A stretch of 64,000 bases of DNA, from IMG/VR virus record IMGVR_UViG_3300028048_000113, positions 1 through 64,000 of that record. One strand, 5' to 3'. A program made the position numbers and the translations under genes. Under the pieces are notes generated by a model, which had not been told where the DNA came from, searched no databases, and worked only from the letters and a program-made list of their open reading frames with translations. How positions within the stretch are numbered: the first letter of the stretch is position 1; each line of letters begins with the position of its first letter. Below are positions 32,076-60,028 of this stretch, piece after piece. The DNA comes from a virus (lineage: Duplodnaviria; Caudoviricetes).

Positions 32076-32095
32076 GTGAAAGGCTATTTAATTAT
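32076..32095 (+). promoter_or_regulatory. Conserved 20-bp motif, copy 1 (before recA)
   Basis: GTGAAAGGCTATTTAATTAT, identical to 45027-45046. Confidence 0.7.
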
Positions 32096-39979: not shown

Positions 39980-40372
39980 ATGTATCTAGAAATTACAGAA
40001 GAAGAGCTTAATAATAGAATAAGACACATGGATTACTTGTTCTATTTCAAGAGTCAAGGTGGACATTTTGGATCAACTGAAGAGGTCTTAATGATCTTTG
40101 CTGTCCAGAATAAATTTGCTATCTACAATGGAAAGATGGATTATCTTTCTTTGATGTCATCTTGGCAATATGAAAAGTTTGTTAAGAAAATTACAAGATA
40201 TACAAAGAACTGGAAAGTTCATGACAATAAAAACTGGGCTGGAGATAACTATAACATAGTTATTAACTTTGATGGTGCTCCAAGGTCTTACTGTGGAAAT
40301 ATTTTATGTAAGAATTGGAAAAAGTTTTATAGATTAGTAGATTGTATTAGAAAAGGAATGACAATTGTATGA
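39980..40372 (+). CDS. Hypothetical protein
   Basis: Promoter TTTACA at 39919; AAGGA RBS. Confidence 0.55.
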   Translation: MYLEITEEELNNRIRHMDYLFYFKSQGGHFGSTEEVLMIFAVQNKFAIYNGKMDYLSLMSSWQYEKFVKKITRYTKNWKVHDNKNWAGDNYNIVINFDGAPRSYCGNILCKNWKKFYRLVDCIRKGMTIV

Positions 40373-41166
40373 GTGCATTAGATAAGAGAATGAAGGAATT
40401 TTATGAGTTTATCCCAAAAACAAAACTCATGAGAAGATGTCCAGTTGCTATTAGAATTGATGGTAAGGCATTCCACACATTTACTAGAGGTTTTAAGAAG
40501 CCTTTTGATAAAATTATGATTGAAACTATGCAGGAAACAACCAAGTATCTTTGTGAGAATATTCAGGGTTGTGTTCTTGGTTATACACAGTCAGATGAGA
40601 TTACCTTGATCCTTATTGATTATAAGAATCTTGAGAGTTCAGCTTGGTTTGACTATGAAGTTCAGAAGATTTGTAGTGTTGCTGCATCTATGGCAACCAT
40701 GCAATTTAATAGATTGTTTGCTAAAAAGGTTGCTATGTATAAGGATAAGTTAGATGATCTCAGAGCAATGAGAATTATTACTGATACAGATATTGCATTA
40801 GGTCTTGCTTATGAGAAGTCACTTGAGAATGGTGCAATGTTTGATGCTAGATGTTTTAATATTCCTAAGGATGAGGTTTGTAATCTTATCTATTGGAGAC
40901 AGCAGGATGCTTCAAGAAATAGTATTCAGATGCTGGCTAGAACATATTATTCATCTAAGCAGCTTCAGGGTAAGAAAAATACTATGATTCAGGATATGCT
41001 CTTTAAAGACTTTGGTATCAATTGGAATGATTGTCCAGTAGTTGAGAAGAGAGGTACAGCTTGCATTAAGGATGAAGATGGCAAGTGGTTTATTGATGAG
41101 AATATGCCTATTCTTAGAGCCAAAGACAGACAGTATGTTGAGAAACTCATCTATCTAGACAAATGA
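40369..41166 (+). CDS. tRNA(His) guanylyltransferase Thg1 / TLP
   Basis: IRIDGKAFHTFT, YTQSDEI, FDAR, WRQQDASRNS. Confidence 0.92.
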   Translation: MSALDKRMKEFYEFIPKTKLMRRCPVAIRIDGKAFHTFTRGFKKPFDKIMIETMQETTKYLCENIQGCVLGYTQSDEITLILIDYKNLESSAWFDYEVQKICSVAASMATMQFNRLFAKKVAMYKDKLDDLRAMRIITDTDIALGLAYEKSLENGAMFDARCFNIPKDEVCNLIYWRQQDASRNSIQMLARTYYSSKQLQGKKNTMIQDMLFKDFGINWNDCPVVEKRGTACIKDEDGKWFIDENMPILRAKDRQYVEKLIYLDK

Positions 41167-43114: not shown

Positions 43115-44092
43115 ATGACTGATCAAGATTTGGTCAAGAAAATCTCCAAGATAGTTATTGGAGCATTAGCAGGTATAGTAGCAATCATACTTGTATGTAA
43201 TTGCTTCTATAAAGTAGATGAGCAACATAATGCTGTACTTACTCAGTTTGGTACAGTACTTAAGGTTGACACAGCTGGTTTTTACTTTAAAGCACCTTGG
43301 CAGGTTGCAAGAAAAGTAGATATGACCACTCATGGTACACCTATTGGTTATTCAATTGAGAATGGTCAAAATATTCCAAATACAGATGATGGTATAATGA
43401 TTACAGAAGATTACAACTTCTTAAACATTGACTTCTATATGGAATATGCAGTAGTTGATCCAGTAGCTTATTTGTATAATACAGAAAATCCTGAACTTGT
43501 TTTGAGAAACATTGCACAAGCAAATATCAGAACAGTTGTTTCAAATTATACAGTTGATGAAGCTATGACAACTGCAAAGGGACAGATTCAGGCAGATATT
43601 AAGCAAGCCATTATGGATGAGCTTGATAAGAATAATATTGGTCTTAAGATTATCAATATTACAATTCAGGACTCAGAACCACCTACAGATACAATTAAGG
43701 CTGCATTCCAGTCAGTAGAAAATGCTAAGCAGGGTGCAGACACAGCAATGAATAAGGCTAAGGAATATCAGAATAGCCAGCTTCCTGCAGCACAGGCTGA
43801 AGCAGATAATATTATTCAGCAGGCTGAGGCTGATAAACAGGCAAGAATTGCAGAGGCTCAAGGTCAGGTAGAAAGATTTAATAAAATCTATGAGGAATAT
43901 AAGTTATTCCCTACTGTAACAAAAGCAAGATTATTCTATGAAAGAATGGAAAATGTACTTCCTGGTTGTAAGATTATTATTACAGATGGTACTACATCCA
44001 CAGTATATCCTGTAGATTCTTTTACAAAGAATACTCCACCTTATAAGCCAGTTGAAACAACAACTACCACAACTGATGGAGGTAATGGCTAA
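43115..44092 (+). CDS. hflK: FtsH protease modulator HflK (SPFH)
   Basis: TM, AVLTQFG, MITEDYN, IQD.EPP, AF..V..AKQ, AQGQVERF, RL.YE.ME.VL. Confidence 0.85.
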   Translation: MTDQDLVKKISKIVIGALAGIVAIILVCNCFYKVDEQHNAVLTQFGTVLKVDTAGFYFKAPWQVARKVDMTTHGTPIGYSIENGQNIPNTDDGIMITEDYNFLNIDFYMEYAVVDPVAYLYNTENPELVLRNIAQANIRTVVSNYTVDEAMTTAKGQIQADIKQAIMDELDKNNIGLKIINITIQDSEPPTDTIKAAFQSVENAKQGADTAMNKAKEYQNSQLPAAQAEADNIIQQAEADKQARIAEAQGQVERFNKIYEEYKLFPTVTKARLFYERMENVLPGCKIIITDGTTSTVYPVDSFTKNTPPYKPVETTTTTTDGGNG

Positions 44093-44093
44093 T

Positions 44094-44975
44094 ATGAGAA
44101 AGAATAAAATTTTAATTGGTGTATTTGCAGGTGTGGCAGTACTTATTGGATTGATTGTATTCTTTGCATCAGTCTATACAGTACATACAAAGGAATCTGC
44201 AATTGTAGTTAGACTTGGTAAGGCACAAGCAACAGTTACAGAAACTGGAATGCATGCACATGCTCCATTCATTGAATCTACAGTAAAGGTTTATATGGGT
44301 GAGAACTTGTATGATATGCCTAAGTCAGATGTAATTACTTCAGACAAGAAATCAATGATTGCTGATAATTATGTTATTTGGGAAGTAACAGATGCTCTCA
44401 AATATTACCAAACACTTGGTGGTGTTAAGAATAGAGCTGAGGAAAGAGTTGAGGCTGCAGTATACAATGCAACCAAGAATACAATTTCTTCAATGACTCA
44501 GGAAGAAATTATTGCTGCAAGAGGTATGACTCTTACAAATGCAATTACATCAGCATCTAACTCAGATATTGCACAGTATGGTATTAATATTAAGATTGCT
44601 GAAATTAAGGCACTTGACCTTCCTGATAACAACAAGGAAGCTGTCTATAACAGAATGATCTCTGAGAGACAGAATATTGCAGCTGGTTACACAGCTCAGG
44701 GTAATAAGGATGCTCAGATTGTCATTAATGATACTGACAAGCAAGCTTCTATTATTAGGGCTGATGCTGAGGCAAAAGCAGCAATTATTAGAGCTGAAGG
44801 TGAAGCAGAGTACATGAAGATCCTTTCAGCAGCATATAATGATCCTGACAAGGCAGCATTCTATAACTATCTTAGAGGATTAGATGCACTTGAAGCTCTT
44901 GCAAAAGCAGACTCCACAATTATCCTTGATAAGGACTCTGATTATGCAAAGATCCTTTATGGTTATTACACATAA
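44094..44975 (+). CDS. hflC: FtsH protease modulator HflC (SPFH)
   Basis: TM, IVVRLG, ITSDKK, VYNRMISERQ, DP...FYNYLRGL. Confidence 0.85.
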   Translation: MRKNKILIGVFAGVAVLIGLIVFFASVYTVHTKESAIVVRLGKAQATVTETGMHAHAPFIESTVKVYMGENLYDMPKSDVITSDKKSMIADNYVIWEVTDALKYYQTLGGVKNRAEERVEAAVYNATKNTISSMTQEEIIAARGMTLTNAITSASNSDIAQYGINIKIAEIKALDLPDNNKEAVYNRMISERQNIAAGYTAQGNKDAQIVINDTDKQASIIRADAEAKAAIIRAEGEAEYMKILSAAYNDPDKAAFYNYLRGLDALEALAKADSTIILDKDSDYAKILYGYYT

Positions 44976-44984
44976 TTAAATAAA

Positions 44985-45021
44985 GAGGAGTAGATCTTTT
45001 AGGAGGTCTACTCCTTTATTT
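44985..45021 (+). terminator. Rho-independent terminator
   Basis: AGGAGTAGAT(C)/GGTCTACTCCT stem plus T-rich tail. Confidence 0.65.
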
Positions 45022-45026
45022 TGTGT

Positions 45027-45046
45027 GTGAAAGGCTATTTAATTAT
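45027..45046 (+). promoter_or_regulatory. Conserved 20-bp motif, copy 2 (before RNAP operon)
   Basis: GTGAAAGGCTATTTAATTAT. Confidence 0.7.
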
Positions 45047-45127
45047 TATATCGTTTATAGTAATTGGTTTACTTTTTAACAATGTTAAATATAATAAATT
45101 TATATATATTTTAAAGGAGGTACTGCT

Positions 45128-45706
45128 ATGAAGCGTACTGAAAATGATTTCGAGAAGATTAAGATTACGAAAGCCTCCACTAATAAAGTTGCTTGCAACC
45201 TTTATTACGACTCATTTGGAATTGAAAAGATCAAAATTCAAAACTTTGACTATGCATCAAAGCAAAGCATAGACAGTTATATTGATTTTGAAGACGTTAT
45301 TAGAATTGCAGCTGACTGTATGTCAGGCAAGATTATTAAGGACATTGAAAAGGCTCAGGCAGAAAACAAGCAGTACAGCCTTGGATATAAGGGTTCAAAG
45401 TCCTCCTCTATTTATGATGGAAAGCCTGAATCAAGACAGATTACATTTGGTTTGTCTGGTGGTAAGGTTTACATCAATATGACAAGATGTGAAGGTGTAG
45501 TTGACCCTGAAAATGGAACCATTAAGCCTAATGCTACTAGAGATAAGTCAAAGGATCTCAAGCTCTCAGTTGGTGTAGATGTGGATAAGTTTAGAGCAAT
45601 GTTCTTGTATGCAGATGCTTGGATTAAGGCATATCTTTCTAGAGAAGTACCTCTCCTTTATGATGAGGTAGACCAGAAGAGAAAGGAAAATTCTAAGACA
45701 AACTAA
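45128..45706 (+). CDS. Hypothetical protein, first gene of RNAP operon
   Basis: AAAGGAGGT RBS, 192 aa. Confidence 0.65.
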   Translation: MKRTENDFEKIKITKASTNKVACNLYYDSFGIEKIKIQNFDYASKQSIDSYIDFEDVIRIAADCMSGKIIKDIEKAQAENKQYSLGYKGSKSSSIYDGKPESRQITFGLSGGKVYINMTRCEGVVDPENGTIKPNATRDKSKDLKLSVGVDVDKFRAMFLYADAWIKAYLSREVPLLYDEVDQKRKENSKTN

Positions 45707-45727
45707 TCCAAATTTGGAGGTACCAAA

Positions 45728-47989
45728 ATGACAATTCCTGAATTATTTGAGAAAGAATTGAAGTTTTGGATTGAAGCAAATGAAAAGTTCCTGGGTGTCA
45801 CTCCTATCGATGACACCTGGGACTATGCTGATATTCAAGCTTCAATTGACGAATCATGTAAGAAGTTCTGGAACGTTGAAAAACCTTGTAAGTTAGCAAC
45901 TAACTTAAACAAAGGACTTCTTAATAAAGACGCTAGTCTCCAGGTAAAAAATTCATATATGCTTAAGTTAAACTTCTATAACATGTGTATAGATGTTTTT
46001 GGCGATTATGGACCTGAATATGGACTCAAAAAGATCTGCGCAATACCTACTCCTTGCAATGATCTTTGCTGGATTATCAATAGAACACATTACGTCACAA
46101 GAGTAGCTGCAACTAAAGATATTTATGGTTGCGTAAGTAAGGAAAGTTACAACCTCATTAAGGGAGAGGGTTGGAATTATACTATTGATACTGATACTTT
46201 TGATTGTGTTGTTACAAAAGATGAATATAAGTTCAATCCTACATTGGATGAAATCTTCGATAATCACCTTTCAAGACGTTCAAAGTATTTGTTAGAAGCA
46301 GTTCTTGGTGAACCTGTTACAAAGGAAAACTTCAAGGCAGGTTTAAGAAAGCTTCCTACTTTCGACAAATCTTCTATTTTTAATTATAAATTTACGCGTA
46401 TGGAATATTTTGAGGATGTTGTACTCAATTCTAAGAAGTATGCACAGCCTACAAAAGATATTCTTCTTGGCGTTAATACAATCATTTCTTCAAAGACAAG
46501 ACAGTGGACAAGTACTAAGGAGCATATTGATGGTTGTTTAGTACGTTCAGAGTCTAAGATCTTTGCACTTGAAAACTTTAGAACATGTGCAAACTTCTTC
46601 AATATTGAAAGAAAAGATAACCCTAATATTAATGCTGCAGCTGCAAGCAGTGTACACTCTAAGTTTACCTATAATGATGCTAATGGTTTCTTTGATTCAT
46701 TCAAGACCGTCACATCAAAATCAGCTGGTAGACAGAGATTATTGCTTGATAATGTAGTTACAAAACATGGTCTTCTTTGGATTGTTGATGAAGATGGCAC
46801 TATGCATAATATGTTTGAATATTTGGATATGCCTCAGGATGAGAGACTTTCTTGTTTGTCAAAGGCTCCTTTCTGCAATAACGATAAGCCTAAGAGAATC
46901 ATGATGAATGCTAAGATGACTTCACAGGCAGTTCCTCTTGCTGAAGAAATTGATGAACTTACTCATAGAATTACTGCAAGGGTTGGATTTACTGATATTG
47001 AAGGTTATACAGCAGCTGACTCAATCATTATTTCAGAGTCATTTGCAAAGAGACTTAGAACATACGATCAGGAAATTCTCTACTTAGATAAGAATTCAAA
47101 CCTTTATAAGGCTCTTACAGAAACTGAACCTGTAGTATTTGATCTCACATTACTTAAGGCGGTTTTCCCTAGAAAGAATGATGCAATTCTTCTTTCATTT
47201 GAGAATGTCAAGATTGATCACATTGATCACGTTGATGACTATAGAGCAAGAGTATTTATTACTTGGGAAATTCCTTTCAGACTTGGCGATAAGATTACAA
47301 ATCTTCATGGTGCTAAGGGTACAGTTGGTTTAATCTTACCTGATGATAAGATGCCTAGACTTACCAAGAAAGTTGGTAATATGAAGGCTGGTCCTTTGGA
47401 AATAATTATTTCAGGTTATTCAGCTATGAGACGTGGATCTCTTGGTCAGATCTTTGAGGCATGGTCTCTTGCTACTGGAAATACCGATGTTGACTTTGCT
47501 GCAGATGCTATTGCAAAACATGGCAAAGCAATGGAAACATATAGTAAGAATTCAATAGTTGAATATAATGGTGAAACACAAGTCATTCCTGTAGGTATTA
47601 ACTACATTATGAGATTGTATCACCATGCATCAACCAAAGTTTCTTGTTCCTCTGCTGATTTTGCATATAAGAGAACATTAAGATTTGGTGAGATGGAAAA
47701 ACTTAATCTTGTAGCTAATGATTGTCCTAATATCCTTAAGGAACTTGGTATTAGATCAGTTACTAAGTATATTGGTTCTCATAAGCTTATTAACCAGATT
47801 GAAGAGACAAGAGAGCTTCCTAAGAATGCTCATATGTCACTCCAGTTTGTAGAAATTCTTAAATCAATGGGATATAAGTTAACTGTAAGTAAGCTTTCAG
47901 ATAATTATAGTGGAACAGATGAGAAAGATGATGATAACTTGAATGCTATCATCAAGAAGGAGGTCAAGTCAAATGAAGATGACAATTGA
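45728..47989 (+). CDS. Divergent RNA polymerase beta-subunit homolog (753 aa)
   Basis: PFCNNDKPKRIMMNAKMTSQAVPL, GYTAADSIIISE, GDKITNLHGAKGTVG, GQIFE, VG..YIMRLYH, RFGEME match the ordered beta motifs. Confidence 0.9.
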   Translation: MTIPELFEKELKFWIEANEKFLGVTPIDDTWDYADIQASIDESCKKFWNVEKPCKLATNLNKGLLNKDASLQVKNSYMLKLNFYNMCIDVFGDYGPEYGLKKICAIPTPCNDLCWIINRTHYVTRVAATKDIYGCVSKESYNLIKGEGWNYTIDTDTFDCVVTKDEYKFNPTLDEIFDNHLSRRSKYLLEAVLGEPVTKENFKAGLRKLPTFDKSSIFNYKFTRMEYFEDVVLNSKKYAQPTKDILLGVNTIISSKTRQWTSTKEHIDGCLVRSESKIFALENFRTCANFFNIERKDNPNINAAAASSVHSKFTYNDANGFFDSFKTVTSKSAGRQRLLLDNVVTKHGLLWIVDEDGTMHNMFEYLDMPQDERLSCLSKAPFCNNDKPKRIMMNAKMTSQAVPLAEEIDELTHRITARVGFTDIEGYTAADSIIISESFAKRLRTYDQEILYLDKNSNLYKALTETEPVVFDLTLLKAVFPRKNDAILLSFENVKIDHIDHVDDYRARVFITWEIPFRLGDKITNLHGAKGTVGLILPDDKMPRLTKKVGNMKAGPLEIIISGYSAMRRGSLGQIFEAWSLATGNTDVDFAADAIAKHGKAMETYSKNSIVEYNGETQVIPVGINYIMRLYHHASTKVSCSSADFAYKRTLRFGEMEKLNLVANDCPNILKELGIRSVTKYIGSHKLINQIEETRELPKNAHMSLQFVEILKSMGYKLTVSKLSDNYSGTDEKDDDNLNAIIKKEVKSNEDDN

Positions 47990-49199
47990 GCCTATTAACA
48001 TTATTGATGATCCTGCAAATCAGGTTACGTCAGATAAGATCTTTCCTCCTAGAAAGATCAAGGATAAAGATGGTAACTATCTTTTCAATGATGAAGGTAT
48101 CTTCTCAGAAAAAATTTTCGGTAAGTTTGGTCACTGTAGATGTGGTAAGTTAAGAAAGCCTGGCTACTGTGAAGAATGTGGATGCAGAGTTCTCAATAAG
48201 AGAAAGATGCCTGACTTCTTTATTAAGTTTAGTTTTGACCTTCCTAATAGAGTTATTAACTACGGAAAGTTCTCAAACAAGAAGCTTTTAGAGGATCTTC
48301 TCTACTATAGAGGATTCATGTATGAAGGAAAGTACATTGAATTTGATCTTAAGAATGATATGTCAGTGTATGAACAGGATAAGATCCTTTTTGGTAAGGA
48401 AGCAATCCTTTCAATAGGAGTACCTGAGGAATGGTATAATGGTGCAGTTCATAGACTTATTTCTATTCCTCATACCTCATTCAGAAAGATTACTTTCCAG
48501 AATGATAACTATTTCATTGGTGACCTCAATAACCTTTATATTGATATGATCCGTCTTAATAATAAGTATGATAAGCTTAAGAAGAATTCAAAGCTTAACA
48601 TTCTTAATGAACTCAATATCAGATTTACAATCTGCAATGATCTCACTGTTCTTTATGAACAGCTCTTCCAGATCCTTGCTAGAAATCATAGAAATGTTAT
48701 TGATAATGAGCTTAAGGGTCAGCCTGAAACAGGTATGATTAGAGCAGTTATGACAAATAACTTCAGTCTTGATGAGGACACAATTCTTATTGGTAAGTAT
48801 TTTATTGAGACACTCTATCCTAAATTCTTTAGAGAATATATGATAGACGGTGAACTTGATATTAAGGCAATTAACAAGAAACTTAAAGATGAAAAGTATT
48901 TAGTACTCTTTAATAGACAGCCTACCATTGGTGCTAAGTCAATTATTGCAATGCACCCTGTATTCTCTGAATTAGATACAGAACAGTTTGTTATTCAGGC
49001 AAATCCTATTGTATATGATGGACTTGCTGCAGACGTTGATGGTGACTCATTGAATGTAATTGCTCTCTATTCTAAGGAAGCTTGTGAAGAAGCTGAAAAG
49101 CTCTTACCTAGCAAGAATTATATTGAGGGTTCAAATGGTTCTATCAGAAATGGTATACTTGATGAGTTTAAGTATGTAGAAACATTATTAGGAGAATAA
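47973..49199 (+). CDS. Divergent RNA polymerase beta' N-terminal/catalytic half (408 aa)
   Basis: AAGGAGGT RBS; GIFSEKIFG..CRCG..CEECG Zn site, DLNNLY, FNRQPT, catalytic AADVDGD (canonical NADFDGD). Confidence 0.9.
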   Translation: MKMTIEPINIIDDPANQVTSDKIFPPRKIKDKDGNYLFNDEGIFSEKIFGKFGHCRCGKLRKPGYCEECGCRVLNKRKMPDFFIKFSFDLPNRVINYGKFSNKKLLEDLLYYRGFMYEGKYIEFDLKNDMSVYEQDKILFGKEAILSIGVPEEWYNGAVHRLISIPHTSFRKITFQNDNYFIGDLNNLYIDMIRLNNKYDKLKKNSKLNILNELNIRFTICNDLTVLYEQLFQILARNHRNVIDNELKGQPETGMIRAVMTNNFSLDEDTILIGKYFIETLYPKFFREYMIDGELDIKAINKKLKDEKYLVLFNRQPTIGAKSIIAMHPVFSELDTEQFVIQANPIVYDGLAADVDGDSLNVIALYSKEACEEAEKLLPSKNYIEGSNGSIRNGILDEFKYVETLLGE

Positions 49200-49203
49200 T
49201 ACT

Positions 49204-49659
49204 ATGTCAGAGGTAACAAAAAAGAAGCCAGCAACAAAATCTACTGGCAAGAAAAAAGTAGATGACAAAAAGTTGTCTTATATCTTTTTTGGTATTCTTG
49301 TTGTAGCAATTATTGGTTTCTCAATATTGTTGTTATTACCTAAGTCTCCTAAGTATGTAAAGAACTTTGGTGATGATATTGTAACAACAATTGAAATCAA
49401 GGAAAAAGATGAAACAATTAGAATGCTTGTAAAGATTAAAGATAATGATGTTATTGAACAAAAAGGAACTTTAACTTTTATAGCAGATGGAACATCTCAA
49501 GATGCTGAAGGAAAAGAAGTAGCATATAAAATTTATGAAGCTTCTTTTGAACCTTTAGATTCAGAAGAAGAGCCTGAAGTAGTTCAAATTAAGGTATATG
49601 AGAAATCATTAATCTTAGCATATGACTCAGGTGAAATTATTGAATATGAGAGGAAATAA
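49204..49659 (+). CDS. Single-TM membrane protein between the two beta' halves
   Basis: Basic N-terminus, one TM helix, acidic C-domain. Confidence 0.6.
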   Translation: MSEVTKKKPATKSTGKKKVDDKKLSYIFFGILVVAIIGFSILLLLPKSPKYVKNFGDDIVTTIEIKEKDETIRMLVKIKDNDVIEQKGTLTFIADGTSQDAEGKEVAYKIYEASFEPLDSEEEPEVVQIKVYEKSLILAYDSGEIIEYERK

Positions 49660-49664
49660 GATAT

Positions 49665-50639
49665 ATGGCAACACTTAAGAACAGAAAGAAATATGTAGAA
49701 CACTATCATGATCTTGGTGAAGCAATGTTCACAAACTGTACAATTCCTACAGTTGGTGACTTTGCAAAAGCCTATAGCAAAAAAGATGCTGATTCAATAA
49801 AGAAGATTGAAACTATTACTGAGTTTACTGGTAATAAGAAGGATATTGATGAATCAATTGAAAGAAGAAACTCAATTTATTCAGATGCTGAATCTAAGAA
49901 GTTCATGAATTCAGTTATTGCGGCAAATATCACAGATATTACAGAATCTGGTTGGTTCTATAAGAAACTTATCAGTTCTTGTGATGATATGACAATTGTT
50001 GCAGATGACTGTGGTTCAGTTGGTGAAGAGTATGCTTGTCCTATCAGTGAAAAAGTATTCAATTATAAGATCAAGAATAGATATGTAGTTGAATGCAGAG
50101 ACTATATTGAGGATATTAAAAAGCTTCCTAGAAATGGTAAAATCCATGTAAGAACATTCCTCACTTGTAAAAAAGGACCTAGACATTTCTGTGCTAAATG
50201 TGCAGGATTGTTTAGAAGATCCTATGATACAACATTCATTCCTAAGAATATTGGTATCTATTCAACCCTTATGATTACAGAGCACGCTACACAGGCTTCA
50301 TTAGACTCAATGAATAAAGGTGTTACAGAAAAGTTGAATGTACTTTTGGAAAAGAGAATTCCTAAGCCTGCTGATCTTAATGAGGCAAAGGAAAAAATTA
50401 GAGAAATCATTGATGAAATCGGTGATGTTGGTGTTGACTCAAGATTCTATGAAGTAGCTCTTCTTTCTAGATATAGAAATGGTGAGTTTGTATCACTTCA
50501 AAATTCATTTATCAAACAGGAAGATGTTTTTGGTGCATTTGTATATTCAAATACCAAGAAACTTTTTGATAAGATGATTGAAACTGGTGAGTTCAATGCT
50601 AACTCAATGAAGACTAAGATAGCCTTTGATGCATACTAA
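49665..50639 (+). CDS. Divergent RNA polymerase beta' C-terminal half (324 aa)
   Basis: Bridge helix ESGWFYKKL...DDCG, VRTFLTC...CAKCAG Zn site, IG...ITEHATQASL trigger-loop region. Confidence 0.85.
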   Translation: MATLKNRKKYVEHYHDLGEAMFTNCTIPTVGDFAKAYSKKDADSIKKIETITEFTGNKKDIDESIERRNSIYSDAESKKFMNSVIAANITDITESGWFYKKLISSCDDMTIVADDCGSVGEEYACPISEKVFNYKIKNRYVVECRDYIEDIKKLPRNGKIHVRTFLTCKKGPRHFCAKCAGLFRRSYDTTFIPKNIGIYSTLMITEHATQASLDSMNKGVTEKLNVLLEKRIPKPADLNEAKEKIREIIDEIGDVGVDSRFYEVALLSRYRNGEFVSLQNSFIKQEDVFGAFVYSNTKKLFDKMIETGEFNANSMKTKIAFDAY

Positions 50640-59005: not shown

Positions 59006-60028
59006 ATGAAAATTACTAATGCTGTAGAAAAAATTATCAATAAGGAAACCAAGGATAAGGAAATAGATCTGGATAAGTATTCAGAGATTATGGCTGATCT
59101 CACAGGTGATGAATATGTTGAACTTATCAACAAGCTTAGTGAGTTGGGTTATACAGTAAGTAGTAAGGAAGAGGAAGAGGATGAAGAGGCTGATGCCCTT
59201 ATCAATAGTAATGACATTAAGTCAATTATCTCAAGATTCCCTCTTCTCACAAAGGAACAGGAACTTGACTTAGCTAATAAGAAGCTTGAGGGTGATTTGG
59301 ATGCTAAAGAGCTTCTTATCAATTCAAATCTGAGATTGGTTGTCTCAATTGTAAAGAAGTACCTCAATAGAGGTGTTGAATTCCCTGACCTGTTTAGTGC
59401 TGGCTGCACTGGACTTACAATGGCAGTTGATAAGTTTGACCCTTCCAAGGGCTACAAGCTCTCAACATTTGCCACATGGTGGATTAGACAGCAGATTACA
59501 AGTGAAATCTCAACTATGGGTAGAATGATTAGAATACCTGTAAATACTGCTCAGAAGGTAAATGAGGTTAAGAAGGCTAAGAGAGCCCTTGAAATTGATC
59601 TTAATAGAGAGCCTTCCCTTGAGGAAGTTGCAGAAAGACTTGGTATTACTGAGGAAAAGGTAATTGAACTCCTTAGTTATGATATTCAGCCTATCTCCTA
59701 TGATCAGGCCATATCCAGTGACTCAGATGATACCCTTCTGGACTTCATAAGCACAGAATTGGTTGATGAGGATGAAACCTCAGACATTATTAAGGCCCTT
59801 GATGAGATTGAACTCAAGAAGGAAGTCAGAACCCTTATGAGAACTCTGACCCCTAGAGAGAAGCAGGTTATCCTTCTCAGAAAGGGATTTATCAATAATA
59901 AAGTTTATAAGCTCCAGGAAATTGGTGAAATCTTGGGTGTAACTAAGCAGATGGTTAAGTCCATTGAAGAAAAGGCCACCCATAAGATGAAGATTGAATC
60001 AGTTGTCATCCAGATGAGTGAAAACTAA
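59006..60028 (+). CDS. Sigma70-family (RpoD/SigA-like) sigma factor
   Basis: PLLTKEQE (1.2), NLRLVVSI.KKY, DL, FDPSKGYKLST.ATWWIRQ (2), IRIPV (3), LTPREKQVI.LR.G HTH (4). Confidence 0.92.
   Translation: MKITNAVEKIINKETKDKEIDLDKYSEIMADLTGDEYVELINKLSELGYTVSSKEEEEDEEADALINSNDIKSIISRFPLLTKEQELDLANKKLEGDLDAKELLINSNLRLVVSIVKKYLNRGVEFPDLFSAGCTGLTMAVDKFDPSKGYKLSTFATWWIRQQITSEISTMGRMIRIPVNTAQKVNEVKKAKRALEIDLNREPSLEEVAERLGITEEKVIELLSYDIQPISYDQAISSDSDDTLLDFISTELVDEDETSDIIKALDEIELKKEVRTLMRTLTPREKQVILLRKGFINNKVYKLQEIGEILGVTKQMVKSIEEKATHKMKIESVVIQMSEN

Follow-up and report, generated by a model that had tools for sequence, protein, structure and literature searches.

Cell-type RNA polymerases (RNAPs) are large enzymes, and which of their parts can be removed has mostly been learned by deletion work. 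Among phages, only the phiKZ-like jumbo phages are said to encode multisubunit RNAPs, with both large subunits split, two sets of subunits and no sigma factor, and jumbo phages that lack an RNAP of their own usually encode sigma factors (PMC7824862, PMC7598289). The gp68 protein of phiKZ and gp226 of AR9 are sigma-like in fold and docking (PMC9209446). Salmonella phage Arash carries a polymerase together with a sigma factor in its virion (gp206, gp216 and sigma gp10; PMC10585845), and the uncultured tailed phages known as mReC have adjacent β and β′ genes that branch apart from the cellular enzymes (Weinheimer and Aylward 2020, PMC7481178). Here we describe positions 45128-50639 of a 64,000-nucleotide stretch of viral DNA (the window; positions 1 to 64,000 of IMG/VR virus record IMGVR_UViG_3300028048_000113). 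We read them as an operon of a huge ruminant-gut tailed phage that encodes a compact, bacterial-type two-barrel RNAP core with an unsplit β and a two-gene β′, which would be expressed by the host and then transcribe later phage genes; we put the probability of this reading at roughly 75%. The family to which the operon belongs is a previously undescribed variant of phage multisubunit RNAP, set apart by its layout, gene content and sequence scores.

Gene layout of the operon

Open reading frame (ORF) calls show one tight five-gene operon on the plus strand, with products given in amino acids (aa) and overlaps in nucleotides (nt):

45128-45706, plus strand: Whirly-fold protein gene, 192 aa, the first gene of the operon
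45728-47989, plus strand: β, 753 aa, unsplit
47973-49199, plus strand: β′-N, 408 aa, overlapping the end of β by 17 nt
49204-49659, plus strand: gap ORF, 151 aa, inside the β′ split
49665-50639, plus strand: β′-C, 324 aa

The spacings between successive genes are 21, -17, 4 and 5 nt, each gene is preceded by its own Shine-Dalgarno box, and the gene order is the same in the loci of relatives. The β′-N frame opens at 47943, which would give a protein of 418 aa; because the alignment of relatives starts at Met11 and an AGGAGG box lies 9 nt 5′ of the ATG at 47973, we placed the start at that ATG, giving 408 aa. A preliminary description of this DNA had listed three polymerase pieces (753 + 408 + 324 aa, 1485 aa in total), which the ORFs confirm. 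It had also started the unit at 45728; the operon actually begins at 45128, with the 192-aa gene, and a 151-aa ORF separates the two β′ genes. A search of Rfam returned no RNA family within the window.

The β subunit is complete but trimmed

β matches Pfam Rpb2_6 above the curated cut-off (E 3.7e-9) and solved β chains with E 5e-7. An AlphaFold2 model built from 44 relatives (predicted local distance difference test score, pLDDT, 83; predicted template modelling score, pTM, 0.81) superposes on full-length cellular β/Rpb2 (Foldseek E 8e-22). VIA aligned 480-546 residues at Z 21-22 and placed model residues 1-640 onto E. coli 23-1245. Because the model aligns along the whole of the cellular subunit, we regard β as complete but trimmed, and not as a fragment. 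It is encoded by a single ORF, and the earlier claim of an intact 753-aa chain holds.

By translation, the YTAADS motif lies at 47006-47023 and LHGAKG at 47303-47320. The distance between them is 94 residues, in keeping with the flap region of about 100 aa proposed in the preliminary description, and in the model a small flap remains, with short helices at 458-490. The overall β fold is present, and in the double-psi barrel the basic residue of the HG.KG loop is kept (K530). Across the 44 relatives, which share 45-85% identity, H527, G528, A529, K530, G531, D431, K396 and Q400 are invariant, as is a block of the RFGEME type. The segment aligning with the rifampicin-binding stretch is much shortened, so the phage enzyme probably escapes rifampicin.

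The β′ halves and the catalytic motifs

β′-N contains a Zn ribbon (48135-48179), a clamp-helix region and the Mg-binding double-psi barrel with AADVDGD (49026-49046), whose DxDxD metal triad is formed by D354, D356 and D358. It matches Pfam Rpb1_2 above the curated cut-off (E 3.1e-9) and solved β′ chains with E 4e-7, the latter matches taking in the Zn ribbon and the conserved block leading into the clamp helices. C55, C57, C66, C69, D354, D356, G357 and D358 are invariant in eight lineages.

β′-C carries a bridge helix at about 49920-50000, the trigger loop QASLDSMNKG at 50292-50321 and a conserved C-terminal block. The trigger loop is short, with neither insertion nor His, and reads L-D-S-M-N where the bacterial one reads M-R-T-F-H. 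The sequence of β′-C alone matches solved chains weakly (E 0.003). A profile of seven lineages matched 35 chains, all of them β′ (best E 5.6e-4), and its residues 91-269 align from the bridge helix through the trigger loop. Orthologues of β′-C in three relatives give weak Rpb1_5 matches (best E 4.5e-5), and a 21-residue block around the trigger loop is invariant in the seven lineages.

AADVDGD, LHGAKG, YTAADS and QASLDSMNKG translate exactly as quoted in the preliminary description and are invariant across relatives. Since the metal triad, the Zn cysteines, HGAKG, D431 and the trigger-loop block are all invariant down to 45-55% identity, we interpret the rewritten motifs as fixed features under selection rather than as signs of decay. 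We infer, from sequence, that the enzyme is active.

Carrier phages and extent of the family

The window is part of a contig of 88,560 bp, an IMG/VR virus record judged 37% complete. Five relatives with the same block, of 250-467 kb, are rated complete by CheckV; terminal repeats are present in four of them, and G004 is classed linear. The exact 192-aa protein is present on contigs of up to 510 kb. Pfam searches of the five complete relatives for terminase (PF03237, PF17289), tail-sheath (PF04984) and HK97-capsid (PF05065) genes returned nothing. PHROGs then matched large-terminase and tail families in one of them, G005 (250,568 bp), so the Pfam blanks reflect divergence, not absence. The carriers are very divergent tailed phages, and the contig is a fragment of a huge one.

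By Pfam, each of the five complete relatives has one polymerase set (one Rpb1_2 place, one Rpb2_6 gene and at most one Rpb1_5 place), a count that a very divergent second set could escape. The gene for α (PF01193) is absent from all five, with all 14 control genomes matching; none lies beside the operon either, as the preliminary description had noted, and omega was not searched for. At 90% identity, the β family falls into more than 149 clusters, whose members have intact frames throughout and share 44-85% identity with the window β. The β proteins of relatives are 702-832 aa long, always a single chain, and are annotated as unnamed or 'hypothetical'. Thirteen studies contributed the bovine, sheep and goat gut runs in which the stretch is present, and the clusters of the family come from ruminant gut. 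No relative of β turned up when 185,579 bacterial species genomes were scanned, and the scan therefore pointed to no prophage or host. One database entry labels a 504-kb contig of the family 'Bacilli bacterium'.

In G005, 73 of the 74 ORFs of at least 300 aa lie on one strand, and the window is equally one-directional, which is unusual at such a genome size. The same genome (L012-L024) has several ORFs per family, up to three for one terminase family and two for one DNA-polymerase family, and at least five ORFs match homing-endonuclease families. This combination suggests that essential genes of G005 are widely split by mobile endonuclease genes.

Split and unsplit forms of β′

A search for longer relatives of β′-C returned nine clusters of 765-797 aa that represent unsplit β′. 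In one of them, P0295, residues 1-402 match β′-N (49% identity) and residues 436-768 match β′-C (52%), the halves being joined by a linker of about 33 residues; the loci of the unsplit-β′ relatives run β and then β′. The cut falls in the linker that joins the Mg-binding barrel to the bridge helix. In a maximum-likelihood tree of whole β′, seven unsplit forms fall in one clade. The other clade (100/100) contains the window-type split group, the split L011 lineage and two unsplit forms, its internal order being unresolved. Two changes between split and unsplit states are needed in all bootstrap trees, and the strongly supported branches also allow one.

The 151-aa ORF in the gap is predicted to have a basic N-tail, one transmembrane helix and a small β-rich domain. 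It is weakly conserved (28-54% identity), encodes a single-pass membrane protein here and in six relatives, and is absent where β′ is unsplit. In the L011/G005 lineage the gap holds a C2H2/DUF7487 protein and an RRXRR-HNH endonuclease instead. The 151-aa ORF is probably an inserted passenger gene and not a subunit. Because unsplit sister lineages exist, split forms lie among unsplit ones and the gap gene differs, we read the basic design as two genes of ~750 and ~780 aa, and the three-piece form as secondary, arising via genes inserted in the linker, a site that mobile genes enter. The preliminary description had treated the three-piece form as defining the lineage, which does not hold, given the relatives with an unsplit β′ of 765-797 aa and the nesting of split forms among unsplit ones.

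In a deeper relative with an unsplit β′, a further ORF with Pfam Rpb1_5 (L030:1-533) precedes the β/β′ pair by ~5 kb, and downstream of the pair comes a ResIII/DEAD helicase. The two may represent a second polymerase gene and a helicase partner, an arrangement reported for phiKZ-like phages.

Comparison with known polymerases

The enzyme shares with the non-virion RNAPs of phiKZ-type and AR9/PBS2-type jumbo phages (PDB 7S00, 7OGP; PMC7598289, PMC9209446) a phage-encoded two-barrel β/β′ without α, a linked extra non-core gene, and a β′ break immediately C-terminal to the Mg-binding barrel, only a few residues from where AR9 β′-N ends (7s00_d, 448 aa, of which residues 349-434 align to query 321-407). 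The differences are considerable: β is one chain here and two there, each genome has one set here whereas virion and non-virion sets occur there, the core is much smaller at 1485 aa, the β′ cut is secondary within the family, σ70 genes are found in four of the five complete genomes, and the similarity is confined to the barrel cores. The unsplit β, the single set per genome and the σ70 homologues in most genomes bear out the earlier view that the layout is unlike that of phiKZ/AR9. No gp68 or gp226 homologue was recognised, the operon's extra genes have other folds or features, and no comparison with the sequence or model of gp68 or gp226 was made. As the β′ cut is secondary within this family, the cut shared with AR9 need not be inherited, and a shared weak spot is a more likely explanation than shared descent. 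The best scores of β are 32 bits to bacterial chains versus 23 to AR9 and 18 to phiKZ; those of β′-N are 33 and 29 bits to bacterial chains versus 27.5 to the AR9/phiKZ chains. The best PHROG matches are the jumbo-phage β and β′ families, covering just 70-90 residues in the barrel cores.

Bacterial RpoB and RpoC (PDB 5TW1, 6WVJ, 8X6F, 7L7B) are the best sequence and fold matches. The β model aligns with them end to end, and the Zn ribbon, clamp-helix block, DxDxD, bridge helix, trigger loop and RFGEME-type block occur in the same order. The phage core, however, has ~55% of the length of E. coli β + β′ (~2750 aa, the figure of the preliminary description), identity in structural alignments is 12-18%, the hallmark residues are rewritten, and the α-dimer assembly platform of the bacterial α2-β-β′-ω core is absent (PF01193 was not found in the five relatives). 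The split β′ of cyanobacteria and plastids (γ/β′, RpoC1/RpoC2) is a working precedent for β′ as two polypeptides, and γ is the top sequence match of β′-N. The cut in cyanobacterial γ (624 aa, with the barrel at 424-498) nevertheless lies ~125 residues further downstream, and the C-terminal piece there is very large.

The best match in a cultured phage is the virion RNAP of Arash (PMC10585845), with 40-41% identity over both barrel motifs. Like the enzyme described here it is compact, has the β′-C part as a separate gene and is accompanied by a sigma factor encoded by the same phage. Arash gp206 (L029, record 130093-134670, 1525 aa) is annotated 'RNA polymerase subunit beta' and holds both the β and the β′ barrel; because both lie in one chain it is a β + β′-N fusion, which the record's name does not state. 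In Arash the proteins are abundant in virions and their genes lie beside the portal gene, whereas the enzyme here has separate genes, in a replication-gene neighbourhood and behind a σ70-type promoter, and the similarity covers ~80 residues per barrel.

The mReC study kept only β and β′ of 800 aa or more that carry NADxDGD (PMC7481178). This filter excludes the window family (753 aa; 408 + 324 aa, or 765-797 aa unsplit; AADVDGD), and none of six IMG sample numbers of the family appears in the supplements of that study. Across 50,697 phage records just 14-26% of β′-N was matched, with no counterpart beyond the barrel cores; viral UniProt models held no counterpart, and viral structure matches had at most 18% identity. 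About 80-100 residues per barrel can be aligned with the phiKZ/AR9, Arash, mReC and cellular enzymes. A literature search found no earlier description of the family, and, its coverage being incomplete, this is weak evidence of novelty. The preliminary description had proposed a distinct, near-minimal lineage. The family is indeed conserved, very compact and without a counterpart in the 50,697 phage records, PHROGs and viral UniProt, and 'near-minimal' is fair for β/β′, but the 1525-aa fusion of Arash is of similar scale.

Promoter, expression and sigma genes

The following signals lie around the operon, with a sigma gene downstream:

44984-45017, plus strand: intrinsic-terminator-like hairpin, a 15-pair stem followed by a T run, lying at the close of the SPFH gene before it and forming the 5′ limit of the operon
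45027-45046, plus strand: 20-bp motif, GTGAAAGGCTATTTAATTAT / GTGAARGGCTATTTAATTAT, one of three copies
45068-45095, plus strand: predicted σ70/σA-type promoter, TTTACT-16-TATAAT, 10 of 12 consensus matches
59006-60028, plus strand: σ70 factor, group-1-like, 340 aa, with Pfam regions 1.2, 2, 3 and 4, 8.4 kb downstream of the operon

The next promoter of the TTTACT-TATAAT kind occurs only downstream of β′-C. A strict pattern (TTTACA or TTGACA, 17 nt, TATAAT) is found upstream of the first operon gene in five further relatives. Of the eight loci, at least six thus have a σ70-type promoter before the operon, those of the window and of the sigma-less G005 included, and on this ground the host RNA polymerase probably switches on the operon. 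In the sequence of events that we propose, the host holoenzyme would read the operon from this promoter after infection, and the phage enzyme would then transcribe later phage genes. At 99-100% identity, the operon is covered by contigs from two RNA libraries made from a single sample. RNA contigs start at 45118 and 45123, and DNA contigs run on upstream, a weak hint that these ends mark the transcript start.

The 88.5-kb contig has exactly three copies of the 20-bp motif, which precede core-gene blocks: recA (copy at 32076), the polymerase operon (45027) and gyrB/gyrA (60173). In both copies examined (45027 and 60173) a TTTACT...TATAAT promoter follows the motif at a distance of ~20-25 bp. 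In seven relatives, the region before the polymerase operon yielded no copy.

Four of the five complete relatives have two to four σ70 genes each; in G005, which has the polymerase, no σ70 region 2 or region 4 is detectable. The sigma factor at 59006 is a candidate partner of the phage polymerase; alternatively, it may redirect the host enzyme. The candidates for promoter specificity are the phage σ70 homologues, the host sigma factor and the Whirly-fold protein.

The Whirly-fold protein at the head of the operon

The AlphaFold2 model of the 192-aa protein (pLDDT 87.7) shows two β4-α repeats, as in the Whirly/PUR fold, and a long C-terminal helix. VIA matched it to StWhy2 (3N1H; Z 12.4, 140 residues aligned, root-mean-square deviation 3.8), PBF-2 (1L3A; Z 11.4) and MRP1/2 (2GIA; Z 9.9), the next match being at 7.5, and Foldseek returned PUR-α and Whirly with probability 1.00. 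The repeats and the long helix are shared with Whirly, PUR-α and MRP proteins over 128-144 residues, but identity is just 8-10%, and the wider family occurs in bacterial mobile elements. The protein has no Pfam or PHROG match, and a profile search of solved-structure sequences found nothing meaningful. From its model it is a candidate single-strand nucleic-acid binder.

In all eight distinct relative loci of the clade (10 loci fetched), two with an unsplit β′ included, a homologue of the Whirly-fold gene is found upstream of β. It directly precedes β in all split-form loci and in L034, whereas in L032 two small ORFs intervene; farther upstream, gene content differs between loci. Conservation is 37-89% identity, about that of β′-N. 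In the deeper lineage L030 there is no Whirly homologue upstream, and the 271-aa gene before its β is not of the Whirly type. A profile search with the family, for which Pfam has no model, returned 265 clusters. The two distant members examined (L025:7246-8112, 288 aa; L028:6012-6935, 307 aa) have no polymerase nearby, and Pfam on ten distant members gave nothing beyond one sub-threshold TFIIA match. The neighbours of the two are RecD2 or UvrD helicases, topoisomerase III, and M23 or 3D-domain wall enzymes, a conjugative-element-like setting. Because distant members sit in such settings without a polymerase, we take the link of the Whirly-fold protein to the polymerase to be positional. A complex prediction of β with the Whirly-fold protein returned no answer (score 0.00, mark 0.32) and speaks neither for nor against an association.

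Other genes in the window

Two tandem SPFH/Band 7 genes (43115-44975) lie directly upstream of the operon and are not at that place in the relative L001. A gene for a Thg1-like tRNA-His guanylyltransferase (40369-41166; Pfam Thg1 E 2.7e-31) is found among the replication genes. The window also holds cargo unusual for a phage (1887-3653; 13097-14593; 16631-19648): a PgaC/PgaD-type polysaccharide synthase, a PIN-PhoH fusion, a VWA protein and a TelA homologue.

Discussion

The replacement of several hallmark residues, the trigger-loop His included, might be taken to mean that these genes are decayed or repurposed copies that do not polymerise RNA. We hold this to be very improbable, with frames intact in more than 149 clusters, the replaced motifs invariant across 45-85% identity, and the metal triad and barrel lysine kept. 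Even slimmer are the chances that the β′ halves are joined by an intron, an intein or read-through, which would make the enzyme two-piece here too. Relatives do carry a single β′, and the clade is rich in homing endonucleases and split genes, but β′-N stops after a variable tail, β′-C has its own ATG and Shine-Dalgarno box, and the gap is occupied by an ordinary membrane-protein ORF. Moreover, Rfam detects no group I or II intron in the window or in L011 9000-18000, and an RNA-library contig crosses 49022-50356 unspliced and without a joint. More can be said for counting the family among the known phiKZ/AR9-type non-virion RNAPs of jumbo phages, with a gene fusion as a cosmetic difference: the β′ cut lies near the C-terminus of AR9 β′-N (7s00_d), α is missing as in those enzymes, and the top PHROG matches are jumbo-phage β and β′ families. 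We nonetheless consider such membership unlikely. β is unsplit, complete genomes have one set and not two, σ70 genes are present in four of five genomes where the phiKZ-like group has none (PMC7824862, PMC7598289), the β′ cut is secondary in the family, bacterial chains score as high as or higher than those of AR9 and phiKZ, and the PHROG matches span only 70-90 residues.

Two proposals on how the core works with other proteins are doubtful, though not so far-fetched as the preceding ones. The phage core could be sigma-dependent, binding the phage σ70 factor (59006-60028), or the host σA in sigma-less relatives, and reading σ70-type promoters that include its own. Residues 183-214 of β′-N (418-aa numbering) align with a conserved cellular β′ block, which presumably leads into the clamp helices, the docking site of sigma region 2. 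The small flap with its short helices is kept in the β model, and sigma genes occur in four of the five complete relatives, with one 8.4 kb downstream of the operon here. The sigma-like fold and docking of AR9 gp226 and phiKZ gp68 (PMC9209446) and the joint presence of polymerase and sigma in the Arash virion (PMC10585845) are in line with this proposal. On the other hand, G005 has the polymerase without a σ70 region 2 or 4, and the usual role of phage sigma factors is to redirect the host core (PMC7598289). The Whirly-fold protein, for its part, could be the specificity or single-strand-handling subunit of the enzyme, resembling the template-strand-reading gp226 of AR9; this, too, we regard with reserve. 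Its gene heads the operon and keeps its adjacency in every locus of the clade despite differing upstream genes, it is conserved to a degree comparable to β′-N, and its fold is that of single-strand DNA and RNA binders, the plant transcription regulator PBF-2 among them. Against this, distant members lie in conjugative-element-like contexts without a polymerase, the deeper L030 polymerase lineage lacks an upstream homologue, and the fold would suit a single-strand binder of replication or recombination equally well.

Several points weigh against our preferred reading of the operon as a host-expressed RNAP core that transcribes later phage genes. Near-universal residues are changed: His to Asn and Arg to Asp in the trigger loop, RHGNKG to LHGAKG, NADFDGD to AADVDGD and YNFEDS to YTAADS. 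That these proteins assemble and transcribe is deduced from sequence and model, the order of host first and phage enzyme later from the promoter consensus, and the escape from rifampicin from our own reading of an alignment. The RNA evidence consists of assembled contigs from one sample, and the libraries possibly hold DNA. The contig itself is without structural genes, so its identity as a phage comes from the relatives and from IMG/VR.

Reviews divide the jumbo phages into those with a split phiKZ-type RNAP and no sigma factor and those with a sigma factor and no RNAP (PMC7598289, PMC7824862); the ruminant-gut phages described here, of 250-467 kb (contigs to ~510 kb), have an RNAP with an unsplit β and mostly a sigma factor as well. 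The compact core might dock canonical σ70 factors, either its own or, in sigma-less relatives, the host σA, and so be a surviving intermediate form linking the bacterial holoenzyme to the phiKZ/AR9 enzymes, with the Whirly-fold protein perhaps an extra single-strand-handling subunit of a kind not known in the class. We offer this as a tentative and rather improbable idea; under it, gp68 and gp226 would be barely recognisable sigma relics.

The family is a natural near-minimal β + β′ pair of ~1500 residues in which every core element is kept. Relative to the cellular enzymes it has lost the α platform, the large lobes and insertions, and the trigger-loop His, all under clear purifying selection. 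It lends itself to cryo-electron microscopy, to testing the role of the trigger-loop His and Arg, and to use as a small orthogonal transcription system. The splitting of its β′ by inserted genes, at the spot where AR9 β′ is cut, shows a possible origin of the multi-piece phage enzymes.

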